Below are positions 929 to 52,401 of a stretch of DNA of 64,000 nucleotides, in pieces (position 1 is the first letter of the stretch; the number at the start of each line of letters is the position of its first letter). The notes under the pieces were generated by a model. The model was not told the origin of the DNA, ran no database searches, and worked only from the letters and a program-made list of their open reading frames with translations. Source of the DNA: a virus (lineage: Duplodnaviria; Heunggongvirae; Uroviricota; Caudoviricetes); the IMG/VR virus record IMGVR_UViG_3300044638_003984, one strand, 5' to 3'. A program made the position numbers and the translations under genes.

Positions 929-938
929 ATATTAAATT

Positions 939-1013: not shown

Positions 1014-1024
1014 ATATAATCTTT

Positions 1025-1101: not shown

Positions 1102-1107
1102 AAACTT

Positions 1108-1200: not shown

Positions 1201-1207
1201 AAATTTT

Positions 1208-1563: not shown

Positions 1564-1568
1564 ACAAT

Positions 1569-1886: not shown

Positions 1887-1904
1887 TATTCCTCACAAAT
1901 TTTA

Positions 1905-1992
1905 TGGTGGAAGCCGTGAGATTTGAACTCACAATCCCCTTGGGGAAATGGTTTTACAGACCACCGCAGCTAACCGTATCTGCCTGACTTCC
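1905..1992 (-). tRNA. tRNA-Tyr (anticodon GUA), type II
   Basis: Acceptor GGAAGTC/GGCTTCC, anticodon stem GTGGT/ACCAT with loop CUGUAAA, long variable arm with CCCC/GGGG stem, T-arm GTGAG-TTCAAAT-CTCAC, A73-CCA. Confidence 0.8.
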
Positions 1993-1993
1993 A

Positions 1994-2149
1994 TTAATCT
2001 TTTCTAAAAACAAACTCAGTACAATCGCAAGTTAAACATTTCTTTTTGGTGTTTGGTATAATTTTACCACAATCACCTATTGGATATTTATGATCTTTTC
2101 TTTCATGACCGCATATACATGGATCATATTTAGTGCAATTAACTATCAT
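1994..2149 (-). CDS. hypothetical small Cys/His-rich (zinc-ribbon-like) protein
   Basis: The ORF-track ORF 1994-2218 overlaps tRNA-Glu; trimmed to the internal Met (MIVNCTKYDPCICGHERKDH...CLTCDC). Confidence 0.35.
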   Translation of the reverse strand: MIVNCTKYDPCICGHERKDHKYPIGDCGKIIPNTKKKCLTCDCTEFVFRKD

Positions 2150-2188
2150 AGATATACTATAACGTATTTTAGTTTGCTTGTCAATATT

Positions 2189-2265
2189 TGGTATGGTCGA
2201 CGGGATTTGAACCCGCAATCCCCACCTTGAAAGGGTGGTGGCTTAACCAATTTGCCTACGACCAT
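2189..2265 (-). tRNA. tRNA-Glu (anticodon UUC)
   Basis: Acceptor ATGGTCG/CGACCAT, anticodon stem CCACC/GGTGG with loop CUUUCAA, T-arm GCGGG-TTCAAAT-CCCGT, A73-CCA. Confidence 0.75.
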
Positions 2266-2283
2266 ATATGTTTAAATATTTTT

Positions 2284-2361
2284 GGTGGCTCCGCCCGGAT
2301 TCGAACCGGGATCTTATGCTCTTCAGGCATATGCTGCATACCAATCCAGCTACACAGAGCC
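2284..2361 (-). tRNA. tRNA-Phe (anticodon GAA)
   Basis: Acceptor GGCTCTG/CGGAGCC, anticodon stem TATGC/GCATA with loop CUGAAGA, T-arm CCCGG-TTCGAAT-CCGGG, A73-CCA; D-arm pairing imperfect. Confidence 0.65.
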
Positions 2362-2459
2362 ATTAAAATTTTGCGCTTCTCAGTGGATTTCACTATAGTT
2401 CCGAATCTTGACTAGATACCTTGAGCTCAGTATCAATCGCACGTCTATCACTAAGAATT

Positions 2460-2533
2460 TGGTGGAATCTGTCAGAATCGAACTGACATCGCCTGAATGC
2501 AAATCAGGAGTTTTCCCATTAAACTAAGACCCC
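2460..2533 (-). tRNA. tRNA-Ala (anticodon UGC)
   Basis: Acceptor GGGGTCT/AGATTCC with G3:U70 wobble, D-arm GTTT-AATGGGA-AAAC, anticodon stem CCTGA/TCAGG with loop UUUGCAU, T-arm GTCAG-TTCGATT-CTGAC, CCA. Confidence 0.7.
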
Positions 2534-2538
2534 AAAAG

Positions 2539-2612
2539 TGGAGGTTGATTGTAGAATTGAACACCAGATTTTCCGTAGACAACGGAAGGTTTTACCACTA
2601 AACTAACGAACC
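2539..2612 (-). tRNA. tRNA-Asp (anticodon GUC)
   Basis: Acceptor GGTTCGT/ATCAACC, D-arm GTTT-AGTGGTA-AAAC, anticodon stem TTCCG/CGGAA with loop UUGUCUA; T-stem has 2 mismatches. Confidence 0.55.
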
Positions 2613-2629
2613 AACTTACTACATTATTT

Positions 2630-2658
2630 AGTATACTTCTTTTAGAACATTTCGTCAA
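2630..2658 (-). promoter_or_regulatory. sigma70-like promoter (TTGACG-17-TATACT) upstream of tRNA-Asp
   Basis: The reverse complement reads TTGACGaaatgttctaaaagaagTATACT. Confidence 0.5.
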
Positions 2659-2664
2659 ACTCTT

Positions 2665-2838
2665 TTACCATTTTGTTAAAGAAAAAAGAACGATACTACC
2701 ATCACGATCAATACCAAACTGCATATCTTTGAATGTAAAGAACCACACTTCAAACAGATTTGAGTATTCAAGATCTGGAATCACTTCAGATAAACCAATT
2801 TCTTGAAGAGAAGAAATTACATCGTCATTAGGTTTCAT
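2665..2838 (-). CDS. hypothetical 57-aa protein (not in ORF track)
   Basis: ATG preceded by AAGGA Shine-Dalgarno at ~7 nt; translates MKPNDDVISSLQEIGLSEVIPDLEYSNLFEVWFFTFKDMQFGIDRDGSIVLFSLTKW. Confidence 0.35.
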   Translation of the reverse strand: MKPNDDVISSLQEIGLSEVIPDLEYSNLFEVWFFTFKDMQFGIDRDGSIVLFSLTKW

Positions 2839-2858
2839 AATTATCCTTTATTATAACT

Positions 2859-2932
2859 TGGAGCACTGTGATGGAATCGAACCATCGTTAACTGTTTTGC
2901 AGACAGTTACCTAGCCTCTCGGACAACAGTGC
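2859..2932 (-). tRNA. tRNA-Cys (anticodon GCA)
   Basis: Perfect acceptor GCACTGT/ACAGTGC, anticodon stem ACTGT/ACAGT with loop CUGCAAA, T-arm GATGG-TTCGATT-CCATC, CCA. Confidence 0.75.
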
Positions 2933-2942
2933 AAAAATTGTT

Positions 2943-3017
2943 TGGTGGGATCGGTGAGGCTCGAACTCACAACTCCAGACTTAAAAGGTCTGTACTCTAC
3001 CATTGAGTTACGATCCC
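2943..3017 (-). tRNA. tRNA-Lys (anticodon UUU)
   Basis: Acceptor GGGATCG/CGATCCC, D-arm ACTC-AATGGTA-GAGT, anticodon stem CAGAC/GTCTG with loop CUUUUAA, T-arm GTGAG-TTCGAGC-CTCAC, A73-CCA. Confidence 0.8.
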
Positions 3018-3100
3018 AAAATTTCTTTCATCACTTTCACATTTGATATTCACACAAACATTGAACCAACCTGACCATCAGTTTTGGATACTTAAAATTA

Positions 3101-3186
3101 TGGAGGAGGATGATAGCATCGAACTATTATCCCTAGAGATACTACGGTTTTCAAGACCGTGCGGGGAGCCAACCCCAGCATCCTCC
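3101..3186 (-). tRNA. tRNA-Ser (anticodon UGA), type II
   Basis: Acceptor GGAGGAT/ATCCTCC, anticodon stem ACGGT/ACCGT with loop CUUGAAA, long variable arm, CCA. Confidence 0.7.
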
Positions 3187-3192
3187 AATATT

Positions 3193-3267
3193 TGGCTCCC
3201 CGGGCAGGACTCGAACCTACAACATCCTGGTTAACAGCCAAGCGCTCTACCATTGAGCTACCGAGGA
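3193..3267 (-). tRNA. tRNA-Asn (anticodon GUU)
   Basis: Acceptor TCCTCGG/CCGGGGA, D-arm GCTC-AATGGTA-GAGC, anticodon stem CTTGG/CCAGG with loop CUGUUAA, T-arm GTAGG-TTCGAGT-CCTGC, G73-CCA. Confidence 0.75.
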
Positions 3268-3972: not shown

Positions 3973-4170
3973 TTAAAAGAATCGAACGGTTCGGAGATTG
4001 TATTCATCGCAAGTTAGAATTCCGAGATTCGTTTCGACGACAAAATTCTCGCCATCGAAGGATACGCAATAATCTGTAACAGAACCAGAGAATCGAACCA
4101 ATTGTCCGATCCTAGCAGCCCGAACCTGATCATCAGTAATTTCGAACCACGGCGCACTTGCCATTTCCAT
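3973..4170 (-). CDS. hypothetical protein (65 aa)
   Basis: ORF track. Confidence 0.4.
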   Translation of the reverse strand: MEMASAPWFEITDDQVRAARIGQLVRFSGSVTDYCVSFDGENFVVETNLGILTCDEYNLRTVRFF

Positions 4171-4218
4171 ACAACCATTATACCTTTTCAGATTTTGGAA
4201 GTCAAGCGATTTTGGAAA

Positions 4219-4506
4219 TTAATTTCCGAAAATCACTTTTCCTTCCAGGACGATCTTTCCATCAGATGTAGGAACGAGCAAACCATCGTTCATCAGAATC
4301 TTGAGAGGAGCAGCGGAACGAAGTTTTTCGAAATAATCCTCCACAGTATAATGCTTTATGAGCACGTTCATGAACTTTGTCTTCGTGACGGGAGCCTTTC
4401 TGTAGCGGAAACGAGCCACACAAACCTGGTTGCCGTTCAGATCGTAGTTCAGATAGTTGAACTGTAATCCTTTAATGTACGAAAATTTGCTTCGTTCGAA
4501 TTTCAT
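4219..4506 (-). CDS. hypothetical protein (95 aa), start trimmed to MKFERSKF
   Basis: ATG sits 6 nt after a TATAAT box (the conserved TATAATGGTTCTATGAAA element), so the upstream part of the ORF-track ORF is promoter sequence. Confidence 0.45.
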   Translation of the reverse strand: MKFERSKFSYIKGLQFNYLNYDLNGNQVCVARFRYRKAPVTKTKFMNVLIKHYTVEDYFEKLRSAAPLKILMNDGLLVPTSDGKIVLEGKVIFGN

Positions 4507-5251: not shown

Positions 5252-6334
5252 ATGAAGAAACGCTTCTCAAATTCTAACGAAGTCTACTGGGGCAAAGAAC
5301 CCGAAGCAAAAGATTTCGTGGATCCTCTTTCGCCGAACTTTCGCACTTTTCTTCTTGAATCGCTGGCGTGGTACAACTACTCCACGACTTCGGAAAAGAA
5401 GAAGAGATGGTTTATTGACTGGGTGAAGGCCACTCGTCCGAAAGCCAATCATGCTGCTCTTGAAGTCATAAATGATGGCGCCTTCACTACTGCTGGTGCT
5501 CTGGCTCGGATGCATTCTCGTGGACTAACTGAATCCGATTACATTAACCGAAAACTCGCTGGTTGGGTTTCGGACTTTATTACCGAAGGCGAAGGAATCC
5601 TTCGTGCGAAGTCTGTTCAGAAAGAAACCAAGAAGAAGCTTGTTGAAGCCGATCCTCGTCTGTCGAATATGATTAATTCGCTAGATGAAGAATTGGATCG
5701 TCTTATCAAGAATAACTATAAACCGACGGGATTCAATATGGATTATTGGATTCGTCTGAATACTCCTTCTCCGGCTCATCATGCTGCGATTAAAGATCAC
5801 TTCATGAAACTTCTTGAAGAGATTACGAATGAAGATGATGAGCAGATTGCAGAAGCTTACTCTCATCTTAATGAGAAACAATTCAATAATCTGGTTGAAT
5901 TCGTTCTCGATATTGTTTCTACGAAGAAGATTCGGAAGACTCGGGTCGTTCGTAAGAAGAAGACCGCTTCTCCTGTGAAACAAGTTTCTAAGATGAAGTA
6001 TGCTGATAACGATCCGGATACTGGTGTTAAATCTGTTTCTCCCACCGACATTCCTGGTTCTAAGGTAGTCTGGGTTTGGAATAAGAAGTATCGGATGCTT
6101 GGCGCTTATTATGCTCAGGATGGTGCTGAAATCGCAGTGAAGGGTACGACTCTTCTAAACTTCGACGAAGAGATTTCTGTCTGGAAGAAGATTCGTAAAC
6201 CGGAAGTAATTATCCCTCAGATGATCTCCGCAGGAAAACCTGCAATGAAAAAAATCTTCGAAGGAATCGCTTCTAAGTCTTCTAAGATGACTGGTCGAAT
6301 TAACTCTGATACTGTGATCTTGAAGATCTCGTAA
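5252..6334 (+). CDS. hypothetical protein (361 aa)
   Basis: ORF track trimmed to the first ATG downstream of the promoter; no recognisable family. Confidence 0.5.
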   Translation: MKKRFSNSNEVYWGKEPEAKDFVDPLSPNFRTFLLESLAWYNYSTTSEKKKRWFIDWVKATRPKANHAALEVINDGAFTTAGALARMHSRGLTESDYINRKLAGWVSDFITEGEGILRAKSVQKETKKKLVEADPRLSNMINSLDEELDRLIKNNYKPTGFNMDYWIRLNTPSPAHHAAIKDHFMKLLEEITNEDDEQIAEAYSHLNEKQFNNLVEFVLDIVSTKKIRKTRVVRKKKTASPVKQVSKMKYADNDPDTGVKSVSPTDIPGSKVVWVWNKKYRMLGAYYAQDGAEIAVKGTTLLNFDEEISVWKKIRKPEVIIPQMISAGKPAMKKIFEGIASKSSKMTGRINSDTVILKIS

Positions 6335-6354
6335 TAATAAATAAAGATAGGAAT

Positions 6355-6603
6355 ATGTCTCACAACGAAACTGTAAATTATCTTGTACTCCAGGGCTGGG
6401 AGTATGATGCGAATGCTGGTGATGGCTTCGCTTTTCGACCTAATTGGTATGATGAGGATATCGATGAACAAGAATGGTTCACTATTGACCAAGCTCTTGA
6501 AATCGAAAAGATTAATGATCCAGAATCTTATCGAGAATATGATATGGTTCAGAATCTGAATTCTAGATACGCTTGTATGTTCTCTCAATATATGGAGTCG
6601 TAG
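6355..6603 (+). CDS. hypothetical acidic protein (82 aa), TAG stop immediately followed in frame by the next ATG
   Basis: ORF track. Confidence 0.45.
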   Translation: MSHNETVNYLVLQGWEYDANAGDGFAFRPNWYDEDIDEQEWFTIDQALEIEKINDPESYREYDMVQNLNSRYACMFSQYMES

Positions 6604-6819
6604 ATGATTCTCGGTTGGGTTATTACAAAGACTCATTCCTCTGGCGTAACAGAAGTTTACGCCAGAGATTATAAAGAATCATGTTTTGGATATTTTACGC
6701 CGAAGATTTCTGAATCTTATATCTTTCGAAATCGTTCGGCTGCTGAGTTAGAATTTAAGAATTATATAGCTATTGTTTCGGAATCATTTGAACTGGTTCC
6801 GGTAGAAGCTTATATCTAA
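6604..6819 (+). CDS. hypothetical protein (71 aa)
   Basis: ORF track; GGAG ~9 nt upstream. Confidence 0.4.
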   Translation: MILGWVITKTHSSGVTEVYARDYKESCFGYFTPKISESYIFRNRSAAELEFKNYIAIVSESFELVPVEAYI

Positions 6820-7724
6820 CTCAAGAAATTAACCCAACCTAGGATGTGTTTTTCCCAATCATAGTTCTCTCTTGCGAACTCTTGAATGTCGAGGCATTTT
6901 TTATTATATGCTTCTGGATTCTTTTGATAATATTCAATAGATTCTTTCAGAGCAGAACAATATTGATCCTCTTCAGGATAACCCATAGGAAGAACTACAC
7001 CACCACCTTTAGGTCCATAATCTTCGAAATATCCAACTGGTGTTGATAAGACTAATCTTCCTGCTGCAGCTGCTTCCATAGAAGGCAATCCAGCAGATTC
7101 TTCAATAGAAGACACTGCCAATGCATCGATTGAGTTATAATAACCTGGCATACACATCCAGTTATAGAAATTATGTTCCACTAATTTAACTTGTGGAATT
7201 TCTGTTGCAGTCTGTTTAACTAGATGACCACGTTTAATCTCTACATCGAAGAAATTCTTAGTCTCTTTCGCCCCACCATATCCTAACTTCTCAAGTTTTT
7301 CCGAAGGTTTCCTATAGAAGGAGTCGAAATGAATTCCAAAAGGAATTACATCAGGAATTCTTTCGACTCCAAATTCTGCCGCTTTATTCTTCAATACATT
7401 AGAAACTACACCAAATTTTTTAATTTGATTGTAGAAGAGATTACCGAAATCTCTTCTAGCAAGAAGCATATCCCACTGTCCATGAGCAACTGTTGCTAAT
7501 TTTTCAGGTGGAATTCCTAGTCTGTTCAGATGAACAATCGCTTCCGGATTAGTAACGAATAGATCGTAGGAGTCGTTTAATAAACGAATTTCATCAGGAG
7601 TATAGTGTTGTGTCCAATCAAGCAGATTGGCAATAATTCCATACTTATATAATTCTTTTGCTAGAGCATGATGGATCGATCCGAAGGCCCATCTGTTCTG
7701 TGTGTAGAATAATACTTTCTTCAT
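6816..7724 (-). CDS. glycosyltransferase, GT-B fold (group 1 / GT4-like)
   Basis: C-terminal SIEESAGLPSMEAAAAGRLVL (E-x7-E retaining GT motif). Confidence 0.65.
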   Translation of the reverse strand: MKKVLFYTQNRWAFGSIHHALAKELYKYGIIANLLDWTQHYTPDEIRLLNDSYDLFVTNPEAIVHLNRLGIPPEKLATVAHGQWDMLLARRDFGNLFYNQIKKFGVVSNVLKNKAAEFGVERIPDVIPFGIHFDSFYRKPSEKLEKLGYGGAKETKNFFDVEIKRGHLVKQTATEIPQVKLVEHNFYNWMCMPGYYNSIDALAVSSIEESAGLPSMEAAAAGRLVLSTPVGYFEDYGPKGGGVVLPMGYPEEDQYCSALKESIEYYQKNPEAYNKKCLDIQEFARENYDWEKHILGWVNFLS

Positions 7725-7760
7725 TATATACCTCGCAAATTCATTTTTATGTAAATAATA

Positions 7761-8405
7761 TTATTTGGTGGCTTTCCAGTTAGCAAACCATTCATGCTCT
7801 TCTTTACTTATTTTAGGTAAATTTGGATTACTTGTATTATAATCTGAACAACATGTAACTCCAAATACCCTATTATTAGGTAAACCATCAATATACCAAC
7901 AATCTGGTAAACACATATTAAACAAATAATCATCTCCATACAAAATTTGTAATTCACTTGGAATCTGAAGATAATTATTTTTCTTCATAATCATCAAACA
8001 CCCAAAACCCCAACACCGTTCATGTGCTCTTGTTAATTTGAGTGTATCTGAATTACTAAACATATTCAAACCGTATAAACCTGATTCGTGATTATCTAAT
8101 ACTGGTAATAGAGCATCAAAAATATTGGTATCAAATAAAATATCATCATTTAGAAGGCACACGTAATCGAATTTAGCTAATTTTACACCAAGATTCCAAG
8201 CGGGATTCACATAGATATTTTGTTCTTGATCTATTACGTTGATCTTCGGATTCTCTAATATTTTCCAATCAGGTGTTTTATTTTTCTTGTTATTGATAAT
8301 TATAATTTCATGTATTACATCTTGTTGTATCAGTTCAGTCAATTGGATCTCAAAACTCTGAGGAACCCACATTGTGGGTATAATGATTGAGAATTTGTTG
8401 TTCAT
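7761..8405 (-). CDS. glycosyltransferase family 2-like (GT-A)
   Basis: N-terminal FSIIIPT and an NDD (DxD-like) motif. Confidence 0.6.
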   Translation of the reverse strand: MNNKFSIIIPTMWVPQSFEIQLTELIQQDVIHEIIIINNKKNKTPDWKILENPKINVIDQEQNIYVNPAWNLGVKLAKFDYVCLLNDDILFDTNIFDALLPVLDNHESGLYGLNMFSNSDTLKLTRAHERCWGFGCLMIMKKNNYLQIPSELQILYGDDYLFNMCLPDCWYIDGLPNNRVFGVTCCSDYNTSNPNLPKISKEEHEWFANWKATK

Positions 8406-8488
8406 ATTACAGTCCTGCAAAATTTGGCCACCAAGGCGACCATCTATCTAATAAATAATACTTATTATCATGAGAGTGTGACTCTTCA

Positions 8489-8941
8489 TCATATATAAAA
8501 TGTAGTGTTTTTCTCATAATCCTCTATATAATCAGAACATATACCAATACATTTAGAAATATTGTCTTCGTAAAGTTCCGGAATAACAGCTATAGAATTA
8601 TTTATAGGCTGTTTACCTGGATACACCCAAATGAATCCTTTGGATGTTAATGTCATATCGTCCACATCATGCCAGAACCAATTAAACACGGTACTGAACA
8701 TAATATCAACTGCACTATGATTTTTGCAATGAATCCAAAGTTTATGGTTTCTTTCATATAGAAATGATAGATCAATTTCTGAATGACCAGAATCATGACC
8801 AAGAAATAACTGTGAATCATGAACCCACAAATCTACTTCTACATCGTAACCAAGATCTAATGCTCTGTCAATATAATCTGGAGTATTTTCTAGATCCCGA
8901 TTCTTTCCAGAAATGTTACCACGATGTGAAATATATATCAT
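8489..8941 (-). CDS. glycerophosphodiester phosphodiesterase (GDPD)-like protein
   Basis: N-terminal SHRGN...ENT...G-D-VEVD...HD motifs typical of the GDPD family. Confidence 0.5.
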   Translation of the reverse strand: MIYISHRGNISGKNRDLENTPDYIDRALDLGYDVEVDLWVHDSQLFLGHDSGHSEIDLSFLYERNHKLWIHCKNHSAVDIMFSTVFNWFWHDVDDMTLTSKGFIWVYPGKQPINNSIAVIPELYEDNISKCIGICSDYIEDYEKNTTFYI

Positions 8942-9621
8942 AGTCTATTCTTAAATTCTTTATTTAAATATTGTAAACAATAATCAGTTTGATATCTATT
9001 AGATTCATGATACCTCCAATCGATATTATTTTTAAATTCGACAAGATATTCTTTCTTCAAATCCAAGGTATGAAACATCAAAGCCCAACGTCTTTCCATA
9101 CCACAAGCTTGCATTTTATTTGTTGGATATTTTAACCAGTCATTAGGTATCTTATCCATAGATTTCTTGTTTATAGAAAATATTGGGCCAAAAATACCAC
9201 AATCCGGGAGCGAATTGAATGGTATTCCATCTTCAACCCAATTCTGTTGTTCTGTGGAATCATATGAATAGAAGAAATTAAATAGACCCAAAATATCTGT
9301 ATTTTGTAATCTTTCTGAAATTATTTTGAACACATTCGGATTTGTAATTCTGAGAGAATCTTGTAAGAATATGAAGTTTTTAGCCTGATAATTTCTATAT
9401 GCGTGGATATATGCACCAGAATCCCAAGAATCGTATTCTAATCTTTCAAAAATGTATCTAGGATACATATTCTCAAATTCTAAGAAACGATCTTTGAAGT
9501 CTTTATCTTTAGAATTAGTATCTATTATTAATACATCATCAGATGATAGATCACAATTATCCATATCTTGTAATATATTTGATAGACAATCAACATTATC
9601 ATGAGATGCGATTACAATCAT
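8938..9621 (-). CDS. hypothetical protein in glycan island
   Basis: ORF track; operon context. Confidence 0.45.
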   Translation of the reverse strand: MIVIASHDNVDCLSNILQDMDNCDLSSDDVLIIDTNSKDKDFKDRFLEFENMYPRYIFERLEYDSWDSGAYIHAYRNYQAKNFIFLQDSLRITNPNVFKIISERLQNTDILGLFNFFYSYDSTEQQNWVEDGIPFNSLPDCGIFGPIFSINKKSMDKIPNDWLKYPTNKMQACGMERRWALMFHTLDLKKEYLVEFKNNIDWRYHESNRYQTDYCLQYLNKEFKNRL

Positions 9622-26222: not shown

Positions 26223-29200
26223 ATGACAACTCTGAATTTCAATACATCATCGAATTCAATAGTCGATTCATCAATATCAATAACATCCCATAATTTAATA
26301 ACTGGAGTTAATGTAAGATATCAAAATGGCTCTGACCCATCACCATATAATATTGGTTTGACAGATGGAACCGAATATTATGTTGTAGTTAAAAATACAA
26401 ATACAATTTATCTGACATCTAATTTAGATGATATACAATTCTTTTTGAGTTCATTTGATGATTTAATTAATTTGAATGAAAATTCCATTTATATCGATGA
26501 ACACAATTTTTCTACTGGTGATAGAGTTATATATTCTTCTAATGAGGGAATTGATATTGGTGGATTAACTTCTTGGCAAATCTATTATGTAATATCGATT
26601 GATGAAAACAAAATAAAATTAGCAACAAATTATTCGAACGCATTGAATAATATTTCTGTTGATTTAACGAATTTGGGTGAAGGATATACTCATTTAATAT
26701 TTAAATATATTGAGTTATCACCTTCTTCTCTTCCAGGACAAACACATTCATTAGAATACAATTATATTGAAATTGGTGGAGGAGGAGTCTCAGGATCAAC
26801 TGGATTTACAGGATCTACTGGGTTGACAGGAGCTACAGGTCAATTCGGATCAACTGGATTTACTGGTGCAACTGGATTTACAGGATCAACTGGATTTACA
26901 GGATCTACTGGGTTGACAGGAGCTACAGGTCAATTCGGATCAACTGGATTTACTGGTGCAACTGGATTTACAGGATCAATTGGATTTACAGGATCTACTG
27001 GATTTACAGGATCAACTGGATTTACTGGTGCAACTGGATTTACAGGATCAATTGGATTTACAGGATCTACTGGATTTACAGGATCAACTGGATTTACAGG
27101 ATCAACTGGATTTACAGGATCTACTGGATTTACTGGTGCAACTGGATTTACAGGATCAACTGGATTTACAGGATCAACTGGATTTACAGGATCTACTGGA
27201 TTTACTGGTGCAACTGGATTTACAGGATCAACTGGATTTACAGGATCTACTGGATTTACAGGATCAACTGGATTGACAGGAGCTACAGGTCAATTCGGAT
27301 CAACAGGATTTACTGGTGCAACTGGGCCGATTGGCGGTTCAAATACACAAGTTTTATATAATTCTAGCGGAGTCGCCACAGGTTCTGCCAATTTTACATT
27401 TGATGGAACTAGGGCAACCATTGCTGCGTTGACGGTAGATACAAGTACATTGTATGTTGATGCAACAAATGATAGAGTTGGTATTGGGACAACGAGTCCT
27501 GCGGTTATTTTAGATCTTGGTGGTGGAACAAATTTTGTTAATGGTGTAACATCTTATACTGGTATTTCACCAACTGCAAAAACAATACAAATATATGATG
27601 CCACACAATCTTTCTTAAATTTAGTCAGCGGTGTTGACACCGCTGGTGCAGTGCTAGGTGGAATATTTTTCAGTAGAAGTCTTGGTCAAGGCGATGCTCA
27701 CTACAATGTTGCTGGAATAACTGCTTTACAAAATAGTACAGGAACAATTTCTGGTGGGGAATTATTATTTTATACAAAGGCTAACTCTTCACCTACAGAG
27801 AAAATGAGAATCAATGTAACAGGTGACATTATTTTCGGAAATGGGGAATCGAGTGCTACAACTACAGCAGCTACTTTAAGAGGACCAGCTAGAACAGGAA
27901 CAAATGCTGCTGGTTCTAACTTAACTATTGCTACTGGCAATGGAACTGGAACGGGTGGTAGCGGATCTCTAATATTTCAAACTGCTTCTGCCGGATCTTC
28001 TGGGACAACGGCAAATACTTTAAGTGAAAGAATGAGAATCGACTCCTCCGGCAACGTCGGTATTGGAACAGCGAGTCCAAAGCAATTGCTGCATGTAGCT
28101 GGGCAAGGATTGTTTACAACTAGTACATCAAGTTATGACCCAGGTGATTCAGCCGGATCTGCGGTAAGAATCGGTTACAATACTGGTGGAGATTATGGAT
28201 ATGTAATATCCAACAATACTGGCGTAGCCAGTAAACGACTTCTTGTTGGCGGATCTACTGTTGAATTTCTAGTTAGCGGCGCAGAAAAAGGCCGTTTTAA
28301 CTCTGATGGGAAGTTTGGTATTGGAACGACGAGTCCATTAACCACACTACATGTAGGTGCTGTTGCTGCCCTCGACGGCGATGTCACTCTTAGTGCTGGC
28401 ACTAACATGGTGTATGCCACTGCTACTAGTGGGGCGGCGCTGACCTGGAATGCAACCACCAATGGTGGATATGCAAACACCATCATGGCTAGATTACAGC
28501 CTCGCCAGGACACTGGCGCAAACTACTGCTTGGATGTATTCTGCGGTACCTGGAACAACAACAACTCTGCTGGCACTGCTATTGCTACATTCTCAAGTTC
28601 TGGCAATGTCGGTATTGGAACGCAAAGTCCATCTAAGAAAGGTTCCGTAGGGACTGCCGGGACGGACGGCTTTGCGATCCAGTATTCCCCCACCTCGCAA
28701 GAAGTTTTTTCAGTTACGGCAAACACAGGGACTGGCGAGACAAAATTCTTTTGCGATACCAATTACTTCCAGACGTTCTACACGAATAACTCTGAAAAGA
28801 TGCGTGTTAATACTGATGGATACCTTCTTGTTGGATACGCTTCTTCAAACGGATCATACAAACTCCAGGTTAACTCTCAGATATTTGCTACTAACGCAAC
28901 CATCGCTACCTCTGATGGACAATACAAGCAGAACGTTGTTTCGTTGCAGTCTGGTTTGGACGTGATAGAAAAGCTCAATCCAGTCACTTTTAACTGGAAG
29001 GATCACGATATTCACAACTTTGAGAGTGGTACTCAGGTTGGCTTCATCGCTCAGGAAGTTAAGGAGGTTCTTGCGGATACTCCGTACCTGGATTCAGTCA
29101 TCAAGCGCAACGAGCTAAAGCGAGACGATGGATCTGTTGAAGAATTCTACGGCATGGCGGATGCCAAGCTGATCCCCGTATTGGTCAAAGCAATTCAAGA

Positions 29201-29240
29201 ACTGAAGGCAGAGATTGACCTTCTGAAAGCAGGAAATTAA
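26223..29240 (+). CDS. collagen-like tail fibre protein with C-terminal intramolecular chaperone (peptidase S74-like) domain
   Basis: ~170 residues of (G-S/A-T-G-F/L-T) triplet repeats; C-terminal [11 protein letters not shown]...[15 protein letters not shown] resembles endosialidase/tail-fibre self-cleaving chaperone domains. Confidence 0.7.
26790..27340 (+). repeat. tandem 9/18-bp repeats (ggatttacaggatcaact units) encoding collagen-like G-X-Y triplets
   Basis: About 30 near-identical 18-bp units with higher-order ~96-bp periodicity. Confidence 0.8.
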
Positions 29241-45094: not shown

Positions 45095-45971
45095 ATAAAC
45101 TATCCAATTCTTCTTTCGCAATTTCAGCCATCCAATCAATAACGTCAATAACTTCGACATTATCAGAAATACCAGACTCTGTGAAAGAATTTGTTGTGTA
45201 GATCTTATCAAAGTATTTCGATAGATCATCGAATCCTTTCGAGAAGATTCCGTGTGTCACAAACAACCGAAGATTTGGGATCTGCAACTTTTCAGCAATA
45301 CCCAAGAAAGTTCCACCACCATCACAGATATCGTCGATGATATAAGAATTTCGTGTCGTGTCTTTGATTACTGGAACTTCGAAACCAAGAAATCTGCCAG
45401 TAACAGGATCACGTTTCTTTTTGCAGTAATATTTCGGATGATTATCGGAAAGCATATCAGCATATCTATTCTTCGCACCTTCATCCGGAAAGATAATATT
45501 TGCTTCAGGATCAGTTACAAGAATTTCTTGAATAATCTTATTAATCGGAATATCTTTATACTCATAATCAAACCTGTTAGAATGACAATCTAAAGTATAG
45601 ATTTTTGCATATGGCCAGACGCAGGTAATGATATTCAAGAAAACTTTCTTACCGAGACAATCTCCTTCTACGAAGCGACGATCGGCTCTTGAATATGGAA
45701 GATAAGGAATCACAACAGCAATATTATTGGATGGCATAGACAAAGTAATATCGTTGATTGCATCTTGCAACAGAAGCAACTTCATTACATCATCGGAATT
45801 CTTAATTCGATGAATTAAGACAACACCAAAACACGAAGTCAATGCTTTGATAGTTTCGGGTTTGAGGCGAACCTGAAGTTCGCCTCCTGGATACTTAAAC
45901 CACTCGTACGAATTTTCGTCGATACGCAATACATTACGATTGGACACGAACACGCTCCTTAATGGTTTCAA
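45087..45971 (-). CDS. prs: ribose-phosphate pyrophosphokinase (PRPP synthetase)
   Basis: PRPP-binding loop IIDDICDGGGTF and overall Prs architecture. Confidence 0.8.
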   Translation of the reverse strand: MKPLRSVFVSNRNVLRIDENSYEWFKYPGGELQVRLKPETIKALTSCFGVVLIHRIKNSDDVMKLLLLQDAINDITLSMPSNNIAVVIPYLPYSRADRRFVEGDCLGKKVFLNIITCVWPYAKIYTLDCHSNRFDYEYKDIPINKIIQEILVTDPEANIIFPDEGAKNRYADMLSDNHPKYYCKKKRDPVTGRFLGFEVPVIKDTTRNSYIIDDICDGGGTFLGIAEKLQIPNLRLFVTHGIFSKGFDDLSKYFDKIYTTNSFTESGISDNVEVIDVIDWMAEIAKEELDSLYV

Positions 45972-47409
45972 ACTTCACTTTATTCAGTATACCGTCTTTC
46001 AAGATGCAAGTCAAGTCGCAATTTTCAAGTTCTTCGAGAGTCGCTTCTTCCTTACAAATCCAGTTGTTATTTTCTGGAGTCCAATCTGGAGCCTTGTAGA
46101 CAGCAAGAATACCTTTACGAGATTTCTTCATTCCAGAATCAGTCTTTGGATCCTTAAAGATAGGAATGATTTTTCCATCTTTTTCGATAGCAGTCGCCTT
46201 CATTGCGAATCCGAAAGTGTCTCTTGTGACATACTCATAAGTATATGACCCGACACCAAACACCATATTATATGGTGAGATCTTCAATTTCTCAACGATG
46301 CCAGATAGAATCTGGCGTGCACGATCCAACGTAATCGAATCACCATAGATACAACCTGCTTTGTTGATCATACGATTATGATCCAAACCAAAAACTTCTT
46401 TCAGAAGAGCCAAGACACCAAGATCAGCTGGTCCATTACCTCGTTCTTGAATGCTAGAATTATTCTTGCCTAGTACAATCTCAACAGGATCACCGGAATC
46501 AGGACGAATAACAATCTTACCGTTACGAGCAATGATTTTATCTTTCAAACGAGGCATGAAGTCTGTTAGAACAGTCCACAGATCCCAAGTATCAGAAACG
46601 ATCGAAACGATTCCTTCTGGATAGATATCTTCAACTAGACGACGGAAAGTTTCAAATTCGTCTTCTTTACCACCAGCACACATAACAGAGTGCTCTGTAG
46701 CAGGAACAGAAGAACCTGTCGTAGCAATGTTTGCATCATAATAATGCTCAGCTGCTAGAATAGCAGGGATAGTATCAGTTCCATTGAACGATAGAAGGTG
46801 ACCCATACCAGAAGCTACTGCATCACCTAGAGACGACATACCACGCATGGAGAAATCGTGGAATTGATAATCGATGAAACCAAAATCAGTCTCTCCTGCT
46901 TTTCGTGCCCATTCCATACCAATCTTACGATATTCAAGAGCAGTCGTTGCCGAAGTGTATGGTTTCCAAATAGATAGAGAAAGAATCGTTTCTAGGAAAT
47001 TAGGAAGCCAGAAAGCGTGGTCGACTGTATTGTAAATGACAAGAGATGGAATTCCAATATTAACCGAATATCCTTCCGGAATTGCGTAGATGTTAATAGG
47101 AAGACGTCCTTCATCATGAAGTGCCTTGATGTGGTCTGTTTTGGGATTCTGAATTCCAAGAGTTTTAGAGATTACACGGACATATTCTGCTTCTACTTCG
47201 ATCCAAGGCACAGAGAAAAAGCTATTATCGAATTCCTTCAGAAGATCAAGTAGAAAATACTGGTGTCCAAAAACAACAATTTTTTCAATACCAGGGACAC
47301 GAGATTTTCGTGCAGTCCAATTTGAGTAGACTCGTGTCACTCCTTCTGGATATTGGCGAACGTGATCAATCTTGTAGAAGTCTGCTAAGAGAACTGGGAT
47401 GGTGTTCAT
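45934..47409 (-). CDS. nadV: nicotinamide phosphoribosyltransferase (NAMPT/NadV)
   Basis: N-terminal MNTIPVLLADFYKIDH and the rest matches the NAMPT family; start chosen at the ATG with a GAAAGG RBS. Confidence 0.8.
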   Translation of the reverse strand: MNTIPVLLADFYKIDHVRQYPEGVTRVYSNWTARKSRVPGIEKIVVFGHQYFLLDLLKEFDNSFFSVPWIEVEAEYVRVISKTLGIQNPKTDHIKALHDEGRLPINIYAIPEGYSVNIGIPSLVIYNTVDHAFWLPNFLETILSLSIWKPYTSATTALEYRKIGMEWARKAGETDFGFIDYQFHDFSMRGMSSLGDAVASGMGHLLSFNGTDTIPAILAAEHYYDANIATTGSSVPATEHSVMCAGGKEDEFETFRRLVEDIYPEGIVSIVSDTWDLWTVLTDFMPRLKDKIIARNGKIVIRPDSGDPVEIVLGKNNSSIQERGNGPADLGVLALLKEVFGLDHNRMINKAGCIYGDSITLDRARQILSGIVEKLKISPYNMVFGVGSYTYEYVTRDTFGFAMKATAIEKDGKIIPIFKDPKTDSGMKKSRKGILAVYKAPDWTPENNNWICKEEATLEELENCDLTCILKDGILNKVKFETIKERVRVQS

Positions 47410-47460
47410 AATTAACCTTTCTTTATTCATTATACTAAATATAGAATCAGAAAGCAAGCT

Positions 47461-48092: not shown

Positions 48093-48197
48093 GTTGTTTT
48101 GTTTGGTGTTGTGGTATTGCTGAAATTTATGGTCGCAGTTAATTTTGATTGACGACTAAACCGCAATTTAGTAAAATAATTCTAAGGAGAAATAATT

Positions 48198-48464
48198 ATG
48201 AAGAAGATTCTTACAGAAGTACAGGGCGAAGGTTTGGTTGCCCTTCTAGGTGAGCATGTGATGTTGTTCTGTGCGAACTACATCTATGCTGGTACACTCA
48301 CTGGAGTGAACGATACATGTGTCCTTCTAGACGATGCGAAGATTGTTTATGAGACTGGTCCGTTCAGCGATGCGAAGTACAAGGACGCTCAGAGTCTTCC
48401 TACCAAGTCTTGGTATATCCAGACTTCTGCGATTGAGTCTTTCGGCATCGGCAAGAAGGGTTAA
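48198..48464 (+). CDS. hypothetical protein (88 aa)
   Basis: Strong RBS TAAGGAG; terminator hairpin follows. Confidence 0.55.
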   Translation: MKKILTEVQGEGLVALLGEHVMLFCANYIYAGTLTGVNDTCVLLDDAKIVYETGPFSDAKYKDAQSLPTKSWYIQTSAIESFGIGKKG

Positions 48465-48466: not shown

Positions 48467-48499
48467 GATGGGGGATTTAAAATCCCCCATCCTTTTATT
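48467..48499 (+). terminator. intrinsic terminator (9-bp stem GATGGGGGA/TCCCCCATC plus T-rich tail)
   Basis: Directly after the stop at 48464. Confidence 0.7.
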
Positions 48500-48602
48500 T
48501 GTTCTATGAAAAATATGTTTACAAGAGAACTTGTAAAAATATTGCATCTAGATCTGGTTCTAATTCATCTGGTTGGTCGGTAGCAACTTGGACTCCTACA
48601 TC

Positions 48603-48788
48603 ATGAAGAAATCAATTTACAAAAGAAATATTGGGTCTAGGTCTTGGTCTGGGTCTAGGTCTTGGTCTTGGTCTGGGTCTTGGTCTGGGTCTTGGTCTGA
48701 GTCTAGGTCTAGGTCTGAGTCTAGGTCTAGGTCTGAGTCTAGGTCTGGGTCTGGGTCTGGGTCTTGGTCTTGGTCTAGGTCTAACTAA
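48603..48788 (+). CDS. putative Ser-X dipeptide-repeat mini-protein, unit 1 (MKKSIYKRNIG-(S-R/W/G/E)n-N)
   Basis: ATG-headed frame through the (TCTNGG)n array ends at TAA directly after the array; no RBS. Confidence 0.25.
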   Translation: MKKSIYKRNIGSRSWSGSRSWSWSGSWSGSWSESRSRSESRSRSESRSGSGSGSWSWSRSN

Positions 48789-48792
48789 AAAT

Positions 48793-49035
48793 ATGATAAA
48801 GAAATCAATTTACAAAAGAAATATTGGGTCTTGGTCTAGGTCTGGGTCTAGGTCTGGGTCTGAGTCTAGGTCTGAGTCTTGGTCTTGGTCTGGGTCTGAG
48901 TCTAGGTCTGAGTCTGGGTCTTGGTCTAGGTCTTGGTCTGAGTCTTGGTCTAGGTCTGGGTCTGGGTCTAGGTCTAGGTCTAGGTTTAGGTCTGGGTCTA
49001 GGTCTAGGTTTAGGTTTAGGTCTGGGTCTAACTAA
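48793..49035 (+). CDS. putative Ser-X dipeptide-repeat mini-protein, unit 2
   Basis: Same architecture as unit 1; 80 aa. Confidence 0.25.
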   Translation: MIKKSIYKRNIGSWSRSGSRSGSESRSESWSWSGSESRSESGSWSRSWSESWSRSGSGSRSRSRFRSGSRSRFRFRSGSN

Positions 49036-49039
49036 AAAT

Positions 49040-49264
49040 ATGATAAAGAAATCAATTTACAAAAGAATTATTTGGTCTAGGTCTGGGTCTGAGTCTGGGT
49101 CTAGGTCTTGGTCTGAGTCTGGGTCTTGGTCTTGGTCTTGGTCTTGGTCTGAGTCTTGGTCTGGGTCTAGGTCTTGGTCTGGGTCTGGGTCTTGGTCTTG
49201 GTCTGGGTCTGAGTCTGGGTCTTGGTCTAGGTCTAGGTCTGGGTCTAGGTCTGGGTCTAACTAA
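49040..49264 (+). CDS. putative Ser-X dipeptide-repeat mini-protein, unit 3
   Basis: Same architecture; 74 aa; followed by a 4th header with no array (11-codon ORF). Confidence 0.25.
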   Translation: MIKKSIYKRIIWSRSGSESGSRSWSESGSWSWSWSWSESWSGSRSWSGSGSWSWSGSESGSWSRSRSGSRSGSN

Positions 49265-49346
49265 AAATATGATAAAGAAATCAATTTACAAAAGAATTAT
49301 TTGATCAATGTAGTATAATTGTATACAACTGACAAGGTTATTAATA

Positions 49347-52326: not shown

Positions 52327-52401
52327 GCGCTTGTAGCATAATGGTAATGTAGAAGATTCTAAACCTTCGAGATGAGAGTTCGATTCTCTCCAAGCGCACC
52401 A
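52327..52401 (+). tRNA. amber suppressor tRNA (anticodon CUA), 75 nt, CCA encoded
   Basis: Cloverleaf GCGCTTG-TA-GCAT-AATGGTA-ATGT-A-GAAGA-TTCTAAA-CCTTC-GAGAT-GAGAG-TTCGATT-CTCTC-CAAGCGC-A-CCA; anticodon loop positions 34-36 = CTA. Confidence 0.7.

Follow-up and report, generated by a model that had tools for sequence, protein, structure and literature searches.

Upstream of rIIA, in a 64,000-nucleotide stretch of DNA from a tailed bacteriophage (the window), copies of a short header beginning with ATG are each followed by a long run of the hexamer TCTNGG, and the question raised by this locus is whether such runs are of consequence as protein, as DNA, as RNA, or not at all. The original prediction, made from the letters of this one stretch, favored putative Ser-X repeat miniproteins, but also allowed for a Gly-Leu product of the +2 frame, for iterated protein-binding sites, and for a contingency locus. 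Here, comparison with relatives of the locus in other viral contigs is used to decide among these readings, and a conserved neighboring gene is considered for what it may say about function.

Organization of the Repeat Locus

In the locus, three intact microprotein genes stand in tandem between one decayed and one truncated copy (Table 1). Three complete units and a stub with a header alone lie within positions 48603-49304 of the window. A complete unit opens with an ATG header of 10-11 codons, continues with TCTNGG hexamers (24, 33, and 30 in the three units), and closes on AAC TAA. Header cores are found at 48606, 48799, 49046, and 49275, and the in-register hexamer arrays occupy 48636-48779 (24 hexamers), 48829-49026 (33), and 49076-49255 (30). 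Only five types of hexamer occur in them, TCTAGG, TCTTGG, TCTGGG, TCTGAG, and TTTAGG, with TCTCGG absent from all arrays of the window, and every array closes with TCT AAC TAA, 4 nt before the next ATG. The motif TCTNGGTCTNGGTCTNGG, allowing at most one mismatch, has 77 matches in the window, every one in the repeat region, against a chance expectation of 0.01. The array is thus found where it had been placed, with the hexamer counts of 24-33, the common ending, and the fourth, array-less header that had been described. Two details required correction: the three full units and stub are present, but the units are 190, 247, and 229 bp in length rather than uniformly ~230 bp, and the header, although shared by all units, begins in unit 1 with ATGAAG (MKK...) and not with ATGATAAAG.

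Table 1. Features of the repeat locus and its upstream neighborhood, in window coordinates
Feature	Position	Strand	Basis
Sigma-70-like promoter candidate, TTGACG-17-TAAAAT	48149..48177	+	Consensus scan, 10/12 matches; 20 nt upstream of partner gene
Partner gene, 88-aa acidic protein of predicted Sm/LSm fold, C-terminal end ...AIESFGIGKKG	48198..48464	+	Predicted fold
G+C-rich hairpin and T-run, intrinsic-terminator-like, between partner gene and repeat genes	48467..48491	+	Terminator scan, 11-pair stem, 6 GC pairs
Unit 0, decayed microprotein gene copy	48499..48606	+	ORF list, sequence, header alignment
Unit 1 microprotein gene, 61 aa, MKKSIYKRNIG-(S-X)24-SN*, pI 11.9, net charge +9	48603..48788	+	ORF including stop
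Unit 2 microprotein gene, 80 aa, MIKKSIYKRNIG-(S-X)33-SN*, pI 12.0, net charge +13	48793..49035	+	ORF including stop
Unit 3 microprotein gene, 74 aa, MIKKSIYKRIIW-(S-X)30-SN*, pI 11.3, net charge +6	49040..49264	+	ORF including stop
Header-only stub, MIKKSIYKRII*	49269..49304	+	ORF including stop

Unit 0 was absent from the original prediction, as were the Sm-like partner gene and the membership of the locus in a family spread over hundreds of uncultured phages. In this decayed copy the Ser-X frame (...ASRSGSNSSGWSVATWTPTS*) has no start but a TTG and ends in a TGA that overlaps the unit 1 ATG. The copy also contains, at 48519-48536, the palindrome TTACAAGAGAACTTGTAA that had been likened to an operator; restricted to contigs of this one phage (L213-L220) and lying within the decayed unit, the palindrome looks instead like a local inverted duplication.

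The window copy adjoins rIIA and rIIB and lies among early-type genes, a linkage to rII that is not conserved in other phages. Promoter-like sites in the region are no more numerous than expected from shuffled sequence, and the promoter candidate in Table 1 is a consensus match only. None of the window microprotein genes has a Shine-Dalgarno sequence, compared with 26 of 45 long ORFs that have one, and these genes use the rarest Gly and Arg codons of the genome (GGG, 5%; AGG, 4%). An equivalent of the terminator-like hairpin is also present in relatives (L121-L124).

The Reading Frame of the Arrays

Because the hexamer leaves several frames open, the choice among them was examined in 104 similar arrays from other viral contigs. 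In the Ser-X frame, an in-frame ATG lies no more than 60 nt upstream (19-40 nt) in 92 arrays, a stop no more than 15 nt downstream in 93, and both in 83; internal stops are absent from all 104, though single mutations to TAG or TGA are possible, and the headers of relatives differ only by synonymous changes. The antisense frames have both start and stop in just 0-2 of 103 arrays, and Pro-Arg or Asp-X products from them are ruled out by this architecture together with their non-conservation where the Ser codon changes. Judged by these comparisons, the Ser-X (ATG) frame is the coding frame, in agreement with what had been favored at the outset.

The alternative that the true product is a Gly-Leu repeat, read in the +2 frame from a TTG codon within the header or by way of a frameshift, draws on the openness of that frame and on the fact that the variable base of the hexamer is synonymous in it. 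Public gene callers, moreover, give chimeric or antisense ORFs over the arrays and not the ATG microproteins, among them a Gly-Leu-to-Ser-X chimera (L217 3627-4067, equivalent to 48824-49264 of the window). An upstream ATG, however, serves the Gly-Leu frame in only 7 of the 104 arrays, a nearby stop in 30, and both in 5, and in lineages with TCG, AGC, or TCC as the Ser codon the +2 frame would give Arg-Gly, Ala-Gly, or Pro-Gly, and the Gly-Leu repeat is therefore not conserved. This part of the original prediction is effectively refuted.

A Two-gene Cassette in Uncultured Phages

Sequence comparison places the repeat genes in a large family of microproteins that has no annotation and is carried by hundreds of uncultured phages. 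In a conserved two-gene cassette they form the downstream part, the upstream gene encoding a protein of predicted Sm/LSm fold. Microproteins were found in well over 100 viral contigs ranging from 25 to 60% GC. When loci were sampled through the partner protein alone, a Ser-X run followed downstream in 65 of 73, and most of the remaining 8 have short or interrupted runs. In the reverse test, the partner was located upstream in 39 of the 56 testable loci found via the hexamer, with 15 of the 56 showing no Sm-like gene in the DNA retrieved. A median of 2 nt separates the partner stop from the start of the microprotein, ATGA overlaps occur in 26 of 87 pairs, and translation of the two genes is coupled in most phages. 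Another family found in the upstream position is distantly homologous to the partner (hhalign probability 95.5%, E = 1.4e-8), and the class of header, basic versus neutral/hydrophobic, tracks the partner family (Mann-Whitney p ~1e-8, uncorrected for shared ancestry).

No third gene is consistently linked to the cassette, and a RiPP-like precursor with its modifying enzyme, or a system with some other third component, was rejected on this ground. None of the longer members of the partner family is an Sm-SX fusion protein. Searches for the cassette in cultured phages by megablast and tblastn found none, megablast returning no cultured relative and tblastn a single record, itself uncultured; in the sole GenBank phage record with the cassette, both genes are unannotated. 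The search for bacterial hosts or prophages recovered nothing beyond short MAG contigs, which came from mixed phyla. The microprotein has no match in Pfam, PHROGs, or PADLOC and only sub-threshold matches in NCBIfam, and phmmer against 5.8 billion proteins gave nothing at E <= 0.001, a search limited by HMMER bias correction and by mis-called ORFs. Full-text searches of the literature, including those for the peptide strings SWSGS and SRSWS, returned nothing relevant apart from a paper on LSm-like proteins of T4, considered below.

The Partner Protein

The fold of the partner protein is confidently predicted to be Sm/LSm. In its model, a helix at the N terminus precedes a five-stranded antiparallel beta-sheet that is strongly bent, and the best structural matches of the model are eukaryotic Sm/LSm structures. 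At the level of sequence, a Pfam search gave no family at E <= 0.1, the LSM model included, and a PDB sequence search gave no match; in the alignment as read by eye, QT takes the place of the Sm2 "RG," and the Asp and Asn positions of Sm1 are Asn and Val. Direct RNA binding by a ring of the partner is doubtful because the protein is acidic (pI ~5, versus pI ~12 and net charge +9 for the microproteins), is without the canonical Sm1 Asp/Asn and Sm2 Arg-Gly pocket residues, and has no Pfam LSM match. The partner family comprises 516 clusters at 50% identity, and its tandem double-domain members (P0121, P0127, and P0150) are compatible with oligomerization. Homology between the partner and T4 rIIA.1 was not detected.

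Selection on Composition and Pattern

The DNA that encodes the microproteins varies by lineage in ways that their composition does not. The Ser codon may be TCT (673), TCG (621), or AGC (149), with TCC and TCA also occurring, and the Arg codon ratio AGG:CGG moves from 204:20 to 23:148 across the GC range, yet the X residues remain Gly, Trp, and Arg at ~30, 26, and 26%, steady from 25% to 60% GC. All three are kept in 146 of 162 ORFs. Half of the residues are Ser, ~13% are Trp and ~13% Arg, and Trp nearly always has Ser on both sides. Since the composition of a neutral repeat would be expected to follow GC content, constant shares of Gly, Trp, and Arg accompanied by a changing Arg codon argue against neutrality, and the conservation of composition across very distant phages argues against independent origins at each locus. 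By these comparisons, selection is acting on the protein, for a Ser in each alternate position and, at X, for Gly, Trp, and Arg in about equal parts.

It could still be supposed that only the header peptide or its translation matters and that the Ser-X body is a neutral coding microsatellite, a tolerated product of slippage. The shortest natural versions are of just 19-20 aa, with three or four Ser-X pairs (L134 and L144), array length ranges from ~11 to 50 hexamers, and codons are uniform within arrays, as slippage predicts. Nevertheless, the steady composition and the retention of all three X residues, together with the freedom from internal stops in 104 of 104 arrays and the keeping of the repeat behind two deeply diverged partner families, make such neutrality improbable.

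Within an array, five of the six hexamer positions are nearly invariant, synonymous sites included. X is almost always an NGG codon despite synonymous alternatives (GGG makes up 93% of Gly codons), a bias seen across lineages that could reflect a constraint at the RNA level, and the self-pairing energy of the array RNA is -84.4 kcal/mol (z = -6.1 versus dinucleotide shuffles). These features would be expected if the array acted as DNA (iterons, binding sites, or a restriction enzyme decoy), as structured RNA, or as a G-quadruplex, with the ORFs incidental. Such a reading is nonetheless very improbable: the DNA unit varies by lineage (TCT, TCG, or AGC, then NGG) while the peptide and the start/stop architecture are conserved, the folding energy is unchanged on permuting the order of the hexamers (z = +0.37), no G-quadruplex is predicted, and Rfam has no family above threshold.

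Specific variants of the nucleic acid reading were also rejected. The iteron-like sites of the original prediction do not fit a hexamer that differs between lineages (TCT, TCG, AGC, TCC, or TCA) while its peptide is conserved. A specific RNA structure is contradicted by an energy equal to that of hexamer-order permutations, Rfam giving only sub-threshold miRNA noise. A type III restriction enzyme decoy would depend on GGTCT, whose reverse complement AGACC we take to be the EcoP1I site; this site occurs only in TCT-type arrays and is lacking in TCG- and AGC-type arrays. The sole A of TCTAGG is the variable base, but adenine mutagenesis of the DGR type was rejected on the evidence of the arrays, as no array of the window has A at every variable position and no template-like array of that kind was seen in the loci examined; most loci, it was also noted against a DGR, carry only a few arrays.

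Variation within One Phage Population

In other samples, the same phage is represented by contigs from short-read assemblies whose flanks are 99.8-100% identical; they contain 2, 3, or 4 full units, and the hypervariability in length originally proposed is therefore real. Unit 3 is missing in some of these contigs, the stub is retained in 2-, 3-, and 4-unit variants alike, and independent samples and assemblies show the same unit-number variants again. Unit 1 has a point divergence of 1.6-2.7%, the flanks one of ~0.2%, and two relatives (L122 and L123) differ by hexamer indels. With a tandem unit number that differs between otherwise identical genomes, the locus is a coding VNTR, or minisatellite. 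It is not a classical contingency locus, as had been suggested, since a repeat of 6 nt is unable to switch a frame on and off, and all 104 arrays stay open in the Ser-X frame. The stub has the same header variant as unit 3 (AAGAATTATTTG), that is, a direct repeat, which could allow gain or loss of whole units by unequal recombination. More generally, hexamer slippage and unequal recombination between headers would produce both uniform codons within each array and fast change in length and unit number. The identity of the units and these evolutionary dynamics can be put forward with high confidence.

Proposed Function

The best explanation of the whole, to which we give slightly less than an even chance, is that the basic low-complexity peptides and the Sm-like protein work together, RNA being their probable target. 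Its components differ in strength: a physical partnership between microprotein and Sm-like protein is reasonably probable, and RNA or polyanion binding as the function is a more tentative proposal. The header would be the partner-specific part, docking the peptide onto an acidic, probably ring-forming Sm-like protein, and the Ser-(Arg/Trp/Gly) body would provide a low-complexity polycationic, aromatic arm in which composition and valency matter rather than exact sequence. Early in infection the two proteins would jointly bind a polyanion, most likely RNA, with the peptide acting like an RG/RGG or RS tail in trans and possibly driving assembly or condensation. The opposite charges of the two proteins and the tracking of partner family by header class speak for this explanation. 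The lack of Shine-Dalgarno sequences, the terminator-like hairpin after the partner gene, and the rare codons of the window copy were counted against it.

A more far-reaching form, speculative and rather unlikely as it stands, would make the cassette a minimal RNP-type or condensate-forming phage system, in which an Sm-like ring and amplified Ser-(Arg/Trp/Gly) "sticker-and-spacer" peptides supplied in trans capture or reorganize host or phage RNA early in infection, with a valency that depends on the length of the repeat and the number of gene copies and is tuned fast by slippage and unequal recombination.

The marked difference in pI between the two proteins could also serve a quite different purpose. 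Arg/Trp-rich peptides are typical of antimicrobial peptides, and the microproteins may be membrane-active cationic peptides (amphipathic if beta-strand, with a Ser face and an Arg/Trp face) directed at the envelope of the host (in superinfection exclusion, for instance, or in the timing of lysis), with the acidic Sm-like protein as chaperone or antidote until release. The Trp and Arg content of the microproteins, the adjacency of the window copy to rIIA and rIIB, and an AF2 prediction for unit 2, which suggests three long beta-strands with alternating faces, would suit such a role. The prediction, however, was made from a single sequence at low to moderate confidence (pLDDT 53-59 in four of five models), the rII linkage is not kept in other phages, and peptides that are half Ser and have neither a hydrophobic segment nor a signal peptide make membrane activity an unlikely function.

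Fast turnover inside one phage population may, in turn, be the mark of an arms race, with the repeats acting as an anti-defense decoy or hook that mimics a ligand or substrate of a host defense or regulatory protein. Trp flanked by small residues recalls the GW/WG "Ago-hook" motifs used by some eukaryotic viruses, and Ser-rich stretches could be decoys for kinases or proteases; the near-constant flanking of Trp by Ser, its ~26% share of X at every GC level, the confinement of the family to phages, and the place of the window copy among early-type genes behind a sigma-70-like promoter candidate are consistent with this. The idea has little probability all the same, as PADLOC models show no similarity, the Sm-like partner is left unexplained, and conservation of composition but not of sequence better fits a bulk physicochemical function than specific mimicry.

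Comparison with Known Systems

In eukaryotes, SmB, SmD1, SmD3, and LSm4 carry Arg-Gly-rich tails, and Scd6/LSm14 are LSm-domain proteins of RNP granules with RGG boxes. The phage cassette likewise combines a predicted Sm-fold core with a low-complexity, Arg/Gly-rich, positively charged segment. Unlike the eukaryotic tails, however, its low-complexity part is a separate, tandemly amplified microprotein, with a strictly alternating Ser-X repeat containing ~13% Trp, and its core is acidic and without recognizable Sm sequence motifs, in a bacteriophage setting where RNA binding is putative. The RS domains of SR splicing factors are disordered, basic Ser-Arg repeats that interact with RNA and protein. 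Basic Ser-Arg dipeptides are shared by the microproteins, but Arg accounts for only ~26% of X, with Gly and Trp equally frequent, and the phage proteins fall outside the SR proteins in having no RRM or other Pfam domain and no linked kinase. RS-like RNA-binding or condensate-forming proteins, as put forward in the original prediction, would still be the functional class with most plausibility.

The sole named database similarity of the microprotein is to the Clf/Sdr MSCRAMM proteins of staphylococci (NCBIfam, 13-19 bits versus cut-offs of 999-2500), whose Ser-Asp regions are likewise long Ser-X repeats, vary in length, and are specified by short DNA repeats in tandem. Judged by sequence, the resemblance is one of low complexity only, the scores lying below the cut-offs for these adhesins, which carry an A-domain and an LPXTG anchor; the Ser-Asp regions form acidic stalks in large secreted cell-wall proteins, whereas the phage proteins are basic, free-standing, cytoplasmic, and 61-80 aa long.

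Among mobile elements, the Borgs have fast-evolving perfect or near-perfect coding tandem repeats that create disordered regions (PMC9879509). As far as the available portion of that paper describes them, Borg repeats resemble the phage repeat as fast-evolving tandem repeats of a mobile-element genome that encode disordered sequence, and differ in that the phage repeat is, in a conserved microprotein family with a fixed partner gene, the entire body of the gene. Closer in setting are T4 GoF and MotB.1, as well as Frd.2, described in the available text of PMC12152347 as small proteins made early by the phage, in which a predicted LSm-like beta-barrel is accompanied by C-terminal domains. They share with the partner a small size and a predicted LSm-like fold, and in T4 they are encoded in the general early region of rIIA, but GoF and MotB.1 have no detectable sequence relationship to it (hhalign probability <=0.2%). 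The T4 annotation next to goF or motB.1 contains no repeat microprotein gene, and the portion of PMC12152347 available mentions none.

Implications

The family appears to be previously undescribed, a novelty judged from the absence of matches in four profile libraries, the PDB, and the full-text literature, and it amounts to a sizeable gene family invisible to current annotation. It offers an unusually clean natural case of a protein selected for composition and pattern rather than for sequence. Since a fixed structured partner is combined with measurable length polymorphism within a population and with only two small genes, questions about low-complexity proteins in bacteria and phages become directly testable, among them those of multivalent RNA binding, condensates, and charge-driven complexes. 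If the RNP-type system proposed above is true, the cassette would be a bacteriophage counterpart of the eukaryotic Sm-core-plus-RG/RS-tail arrangement for RNA processing.

Short Ser-X proteins encoded by the hexamer arrays

The hexamer arrays upstream of rIIA are translatable microprotein genes that change rapidly in length and copy number, are selected at the level of composition and have an obligatory partner, a small protein of predicted Sm fold encoded upstream. As the original prediction described, header cores (AAGAAATCAATTTACAAAAGAA) are followed in register by TCTNGG arrays, read as (Ser-X)n with X the variable residue; each array closes with TCT AAC TAA, and the following ATG lies 4 nt further on (TAA-N4-ATG). 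The fourth core belongs to a header-only stub. Hexamers in the window arrays are limited to TCTAGG, TCTTGG, TCTGGG, TCTGAG and TTTAGG, and all 77 window occurrences of a three-hexamer pattern fall within the array region, versus 0.01 expected. Upstream of unit 1 lies a decayed additional copy, unit 0, whose Ser-X frame has TTG as its sole start and whose TGA stop overlaps the ATG of unit 1 (ATGA).

Features of the cassette, its surroundings and related contigs (window positions unless a contig is named)
Feature	Position	Description
tRNA cluster	762-3267 (-)	17 genes, including Trp(CCA), Ser(UGA), Gly(UCC) and the unusual calls Ile(UAU), Asn(AUU)
Tail-fibre protein	26223-29240 (+)	1005 aa
Nicotinamide phosphoribosyltransferase (NAMPT)	45934-47457 (-)	NAMPT_N and NAPRTase domains; just upstream of cassette
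Sigma-70-like site	48149-48177	precedes partner gene
Partner gene	48198-48464 (+)	88 aa
Terminator-like hairpin	48467-48491	3' of partner gene; kept in relatives L121-L124
Unit 0	48499-48606	decayed copy
Palindrome	48519-48536	within unit 0
Unit 1 ORF	48603-48788 including stop	61 aa; header core at 48606
Array 1	48636-48779	24 TCTNGG hexamers
Unit 2 ORF	48793-49035 including stop	80 aa; header core at 48799
Array 2	48829-49026	33 TCTNGG hexamers
Unit 3 ORF	49040-49264 including stop	74 aa; header core at 49046
Array 3	49076-49255	30 TCTNGG hexamers
Stub ORF	49269-49304 including stop	11 aa, MIKKSIYKRII; header core at 49275
rIIA	start at 49347	rIIB homolog next
Lone tRNA	52327-52401 (+)	anticodon CUA; directly 3' of rIIB homolog
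Public gene calls, L213-L219	3627-4067, 3627-4019, 3627-3878, 3613-3825 (-)	over arrays of the same phage
L006 units	5562-8950 (- strand orientation)	at least 14 units
L124 insertion	~4040-4440	between array and rIIA
L004 promoter-ATG	~7480-7520
L083 promoter-ATG	~1960-1990, 2550-2580

Scans of viral contigs, by header and by a header-independent (GGTCTN)5 search, identified at least 119 loci; the frame was assigned on 104 non-redundant arrays of at least 15 hexamers each. In the Ser-X frame (TCT NGG), 92 have an in-frame ATG within 60 nt upstream (nearly always at 19-40 nt), 93 a stop within 15 nt downstream and 83 both. The corresponding numbers are 7, 30 and 5 for the Gly-Leu frame, 1, 2 and 0 for the third sense frame (open in only 10 arrays), and 1-9, 2-26 and 0-2 of 103 for the three antisense frames. 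Textbook Shine-Dalgarno sequences occur at many loci, such as ACTAGGAGGAAGAACTATG in contig L118, and the window header differs from those of relatives L121 and L124 by synonymous changes only (ATA/ATC/ATT, TCA/TCT, ATT/ATC). Together these observations identify the units as genes whose products are short proteins made of a header plus (Ser-X)n, as first read from the ATG. The Gly-Leu repeat noted in the same DNA, which has both start and stop in just those five arrays and is not conserved where the Ser codon changes, is scarcely credible as a real product. Public gene calls over the arrays include none of the ATG microproteins, being antisense ORFs or chimeras in which the Gly-Leu frame of one unit runs into the Ser-X of the next; such systematic mis-calls, which hide the microproteins from protein databases, are part of the reason that the family has gone unnoticed.

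The window belongs to a large myovirus of environmental origin, which encodes tail sheath, portal, major head protein, terminase, RNR and NAMPT and has no close relative found among annotated phages. It carries 18 tRNA genes, and the large cluster includes no tRNA for AGG or GGG, rare codons heavily used by the arrays. The lone CUA tRNA, of amber-suppressor type (tRNA-Pyl according to ARAGORN), may point to TAG read-through or recoding in this phage; TAA is the stop of all microprotein genes in the window. The upstream neighbour of the NAMPT gene matches Pribosyltran_N (PRPP-synthetase-type) weakly, and the two resemble a pair of auxiliary metabolic genes for NAD salvage. The tail-fibre protein, also repeat-bearing, matches collagen-like repeat families and is unrelated to the Ser-X arrays.

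Variation in length and copy number

In eight contigs from other samples the encoded partner protein is identical, and the flanks match the window at 99.8-100% identity. Among contigs of this phage, two full units plus the stub are found in L214 and L216, three plus the stub in the window, L215, L217 and L218, and four plus the stub in L213, bearing out the expectation of a length-hypervariable locus; these alleles are read from short-read assemblies, and the same ones recur across independent samples and pipelines. Internal divergence of unit 1 is 1.6-2.7%, versus ~0.2% in the flanks and rIIA. As the stub repeats the header variant of unit 3, unequal recombination between headers is suggested to gain and lose whole units. 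Because the repeat is 6 nt long, slippage alters length and never frame, as was foreseen; for the same reason an on/off contingency locus, also envisaged, gives way to length and dosage polymorphism. One block of unit 1 repeats TCTGAG (Ser-Glu) at 18-nt intervals (GAG-AGG-AGG x3), which looks like the footprint of recent slippage of an 18-nt unit, and Glu accounts for 14% of X in this phage versus 2.6% across the family.

More distant relatives carry one unit (L121, L124) or two (L122, L123, which hexamer indels distinguish), and other phages up to 14. That largest expansion, in the GC-rich contig L006, has the header MITKRTKWRR, some GTG starts and successive genes overlapping as ATGA. Besides an inserted gene, the close relative L124 has between array and rIIA two small ORFs, rich in Ser and diverged (for example MFKRHVGKNKMYSSRSGSWSGNRS); their resemblance to unit 0 suggests a birth-and-decay cycle of units.

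An acidic partner with a predicted Sm fold

At many loci the immediately upstream gene ends in WYVQTxAIESFG, as does the 88-aa ORF of the window. Among 80 loci fetched by alignment to this partner protein alone, and so free of ascertainment on the repeat, a Ser-X run follows in 65 of the 73 with enough downstream DNA, usually 20-140 nt past the stop codon; most of the eight misses show a short or interrupted Ser-X, for example MNLNVARCRYKRWSWSWSG ending in a stop. Conversely, of the 56 testable loci ascertained through the hexamer, 39 have the partner directly upstream on the same strand. A second family, also recurrent in the upstream position (ending SIVDAFPWKHKLPKxQK), is distantly homologous to the first (hhalign E = 1.4e-8 across 69 columns, a match of very high probability), and no third gene is consistently linked among the module loci. 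For 87 distinct pairs of genes, a median of 2 nt separates the partner stop from the microprotein start; 32 pairs overlap (26 as ATGA), so that translational coupling is the rule.

Window microprotein genes lack a Shine-Dalgarno sequence; their spacing and the overlap of unit 0 with unit 1 would fit read-through transcription with termination-reinitiation, an arrangement weaker than the tight coupling of most relatives and one that counts against high expression here. In other relatives (L004, L001/L003, L083), the microprotein ATG lies 6 nt 3' of a perfect promoter (TTGACT-17-TATAAT or TGTGGTATAAT), a distance that would imply leaderless mRNAs starting at AUG.

The partner family comprises 287 close homologs and 516 clusters at 50% identity (1.84 billion representatives searched), with no named member and no Pfam domain; searches of Pfam, PHROGs, NCBIfam, PADLOC and PDB sequences were empty. 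The AlphaFold2 model, of very high confidence, shows a short helix leading into a small beta-barrel, a predicted Sm fold. As canonical Sm sequence motifs are unrecognizable and both branches are acidic (median pI ~5), strict membership of the RNA-binding Sm family is unproven. No sequence relationship of the partner to the published T4 LSm-like proteins GoF and MotB.1 (PMC12152347) was detected. Some family members (P0121, P0127, P0150) have two tandem Sm-like domains per polypeptide, an architecture compatible with oligomeric, ring-type assembly; no fusion of a Ser-X repeat to a partner-family protein was found.

Selection on the peptide

Inside a single ORF, Ser is written with an essentially uniform codon (median major-codon share 1.0), the expected product of slippage and concerted evolution. 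Between lineages of the partner-ascertained sample the codon varies (TCT 673, TCG 621, AGC 149, TCC 39, TCA 15), so that neither a DNA or RNA hexamer nor any other reading frame is conserved, which disposes of the suggested iteron-like sites. The operator-like palindrome is confined to this phage's own contigs, inside unit 0. A nucleic-acid element would be favored by the strong self-pairing of the array RNA (-84.4 kcal/mol, z = -6.1 versus dinucleotide shuffles), but permuting hexamer order leaves the energy the same (z = +0.37), making the pairing a generic consequence of the repeat; no G-quadruplex is predicted and an Rfam search gave only sub-threshold noise. With the Ser-codon switch, this renders such an element very unlikely.

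X is Gly in 31%, Trp in 27% and Arg in 26% of cases, and all three are present in 146 of 162 ORFs. Their proportions across GC bins, from which two ORFs at 60-75% GC are omitted, are listed with Arg codon usage.

Composition of X and Arg codons by locus GC content
Locus GC	Gly	Trp	Arg	AGG:CGG
25-38%	0.29	0.29	0.28	204:20
38-45%	0.32	0.26	0.24	239:27
45-52%	0.30	0.27	0.26	165:128
52-60%	0.33	0.24	0.27	23:148

These comparisons indicate that selection acts on the peptide, and a neutral, tolerated repeat behind a functional header is distinctly improbable. The X codon is nearly always NGG (GGG over GGT/GGA, AGG or CGG over AGA/CGT), GGG and AGG being the rarest Gly and Arg codons of the window genome. 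Single-base descent from TGG-type units, homogenized by slippage, is the simplest explanation; an RNA-level constraint on GG spacing could also account for it.

The microproteins have a median length of 62 aa, pI 12 and net charge +9, with ~13% Trp, roughly ten times that of other window proteins. That such an Arg/Trp peptide is membrane-active, with the acidic partner holding it in check, is rather unlikely. AlphaFold2 gave long beta-strands for one microprotein in one of five models, at fair confidence (the others lower), which hints weakly that amphipathic strands could arise from alternating Ser-X.

Possible function and relation to known systems

By analogy the module comes nearest to Sm/LSm cores bearing RG-rich tails, and the microproteins to RS domains, neither of which would admit them as members; nor would the staphylococcal adhesin Ser-Asp repeats, the sole named similarity found, which scored far below threshold. 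No cassette was found in cultured phages. The only GenBank match is an uncultured spring-water phage record, where both cassette genes are unannotated, and genome matches are limited to short contigs from MAGs of mixed phyla, which are probably phage DNA caught in the bins. As the full-text literature yielded no description either, the module is rated as outside every described kind, with a function that we infer.

Headers behind the first partner family are basic (median net charge +4, with a recurrent K-Q-K-[YW]-R motif), whereas those behind the second are neutral or hydrophobic (median net charge 0); charge and hydropathy each differ at Mann-Whitney p ~1e-8, a statistic that ignores shared ancestry. 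Both groups share the Ser-X body. A role as an anti-defence decoy or hook is decidedly doubtful. Tentatively preferred is a header-mediated peptide-partner complex: header/partner co-variation, charge complementarity and translational coupling suggest that the header would dock the microprotein on the partner, leaving the repeat as effector arm. The Ser-(Arg/Trp/Gly) body may then contact a polyanion, RNA being the most plausible, in a multivalent and sequence-independent manner, and so would play the part of an RG/RGG or RS tail provided in trans.
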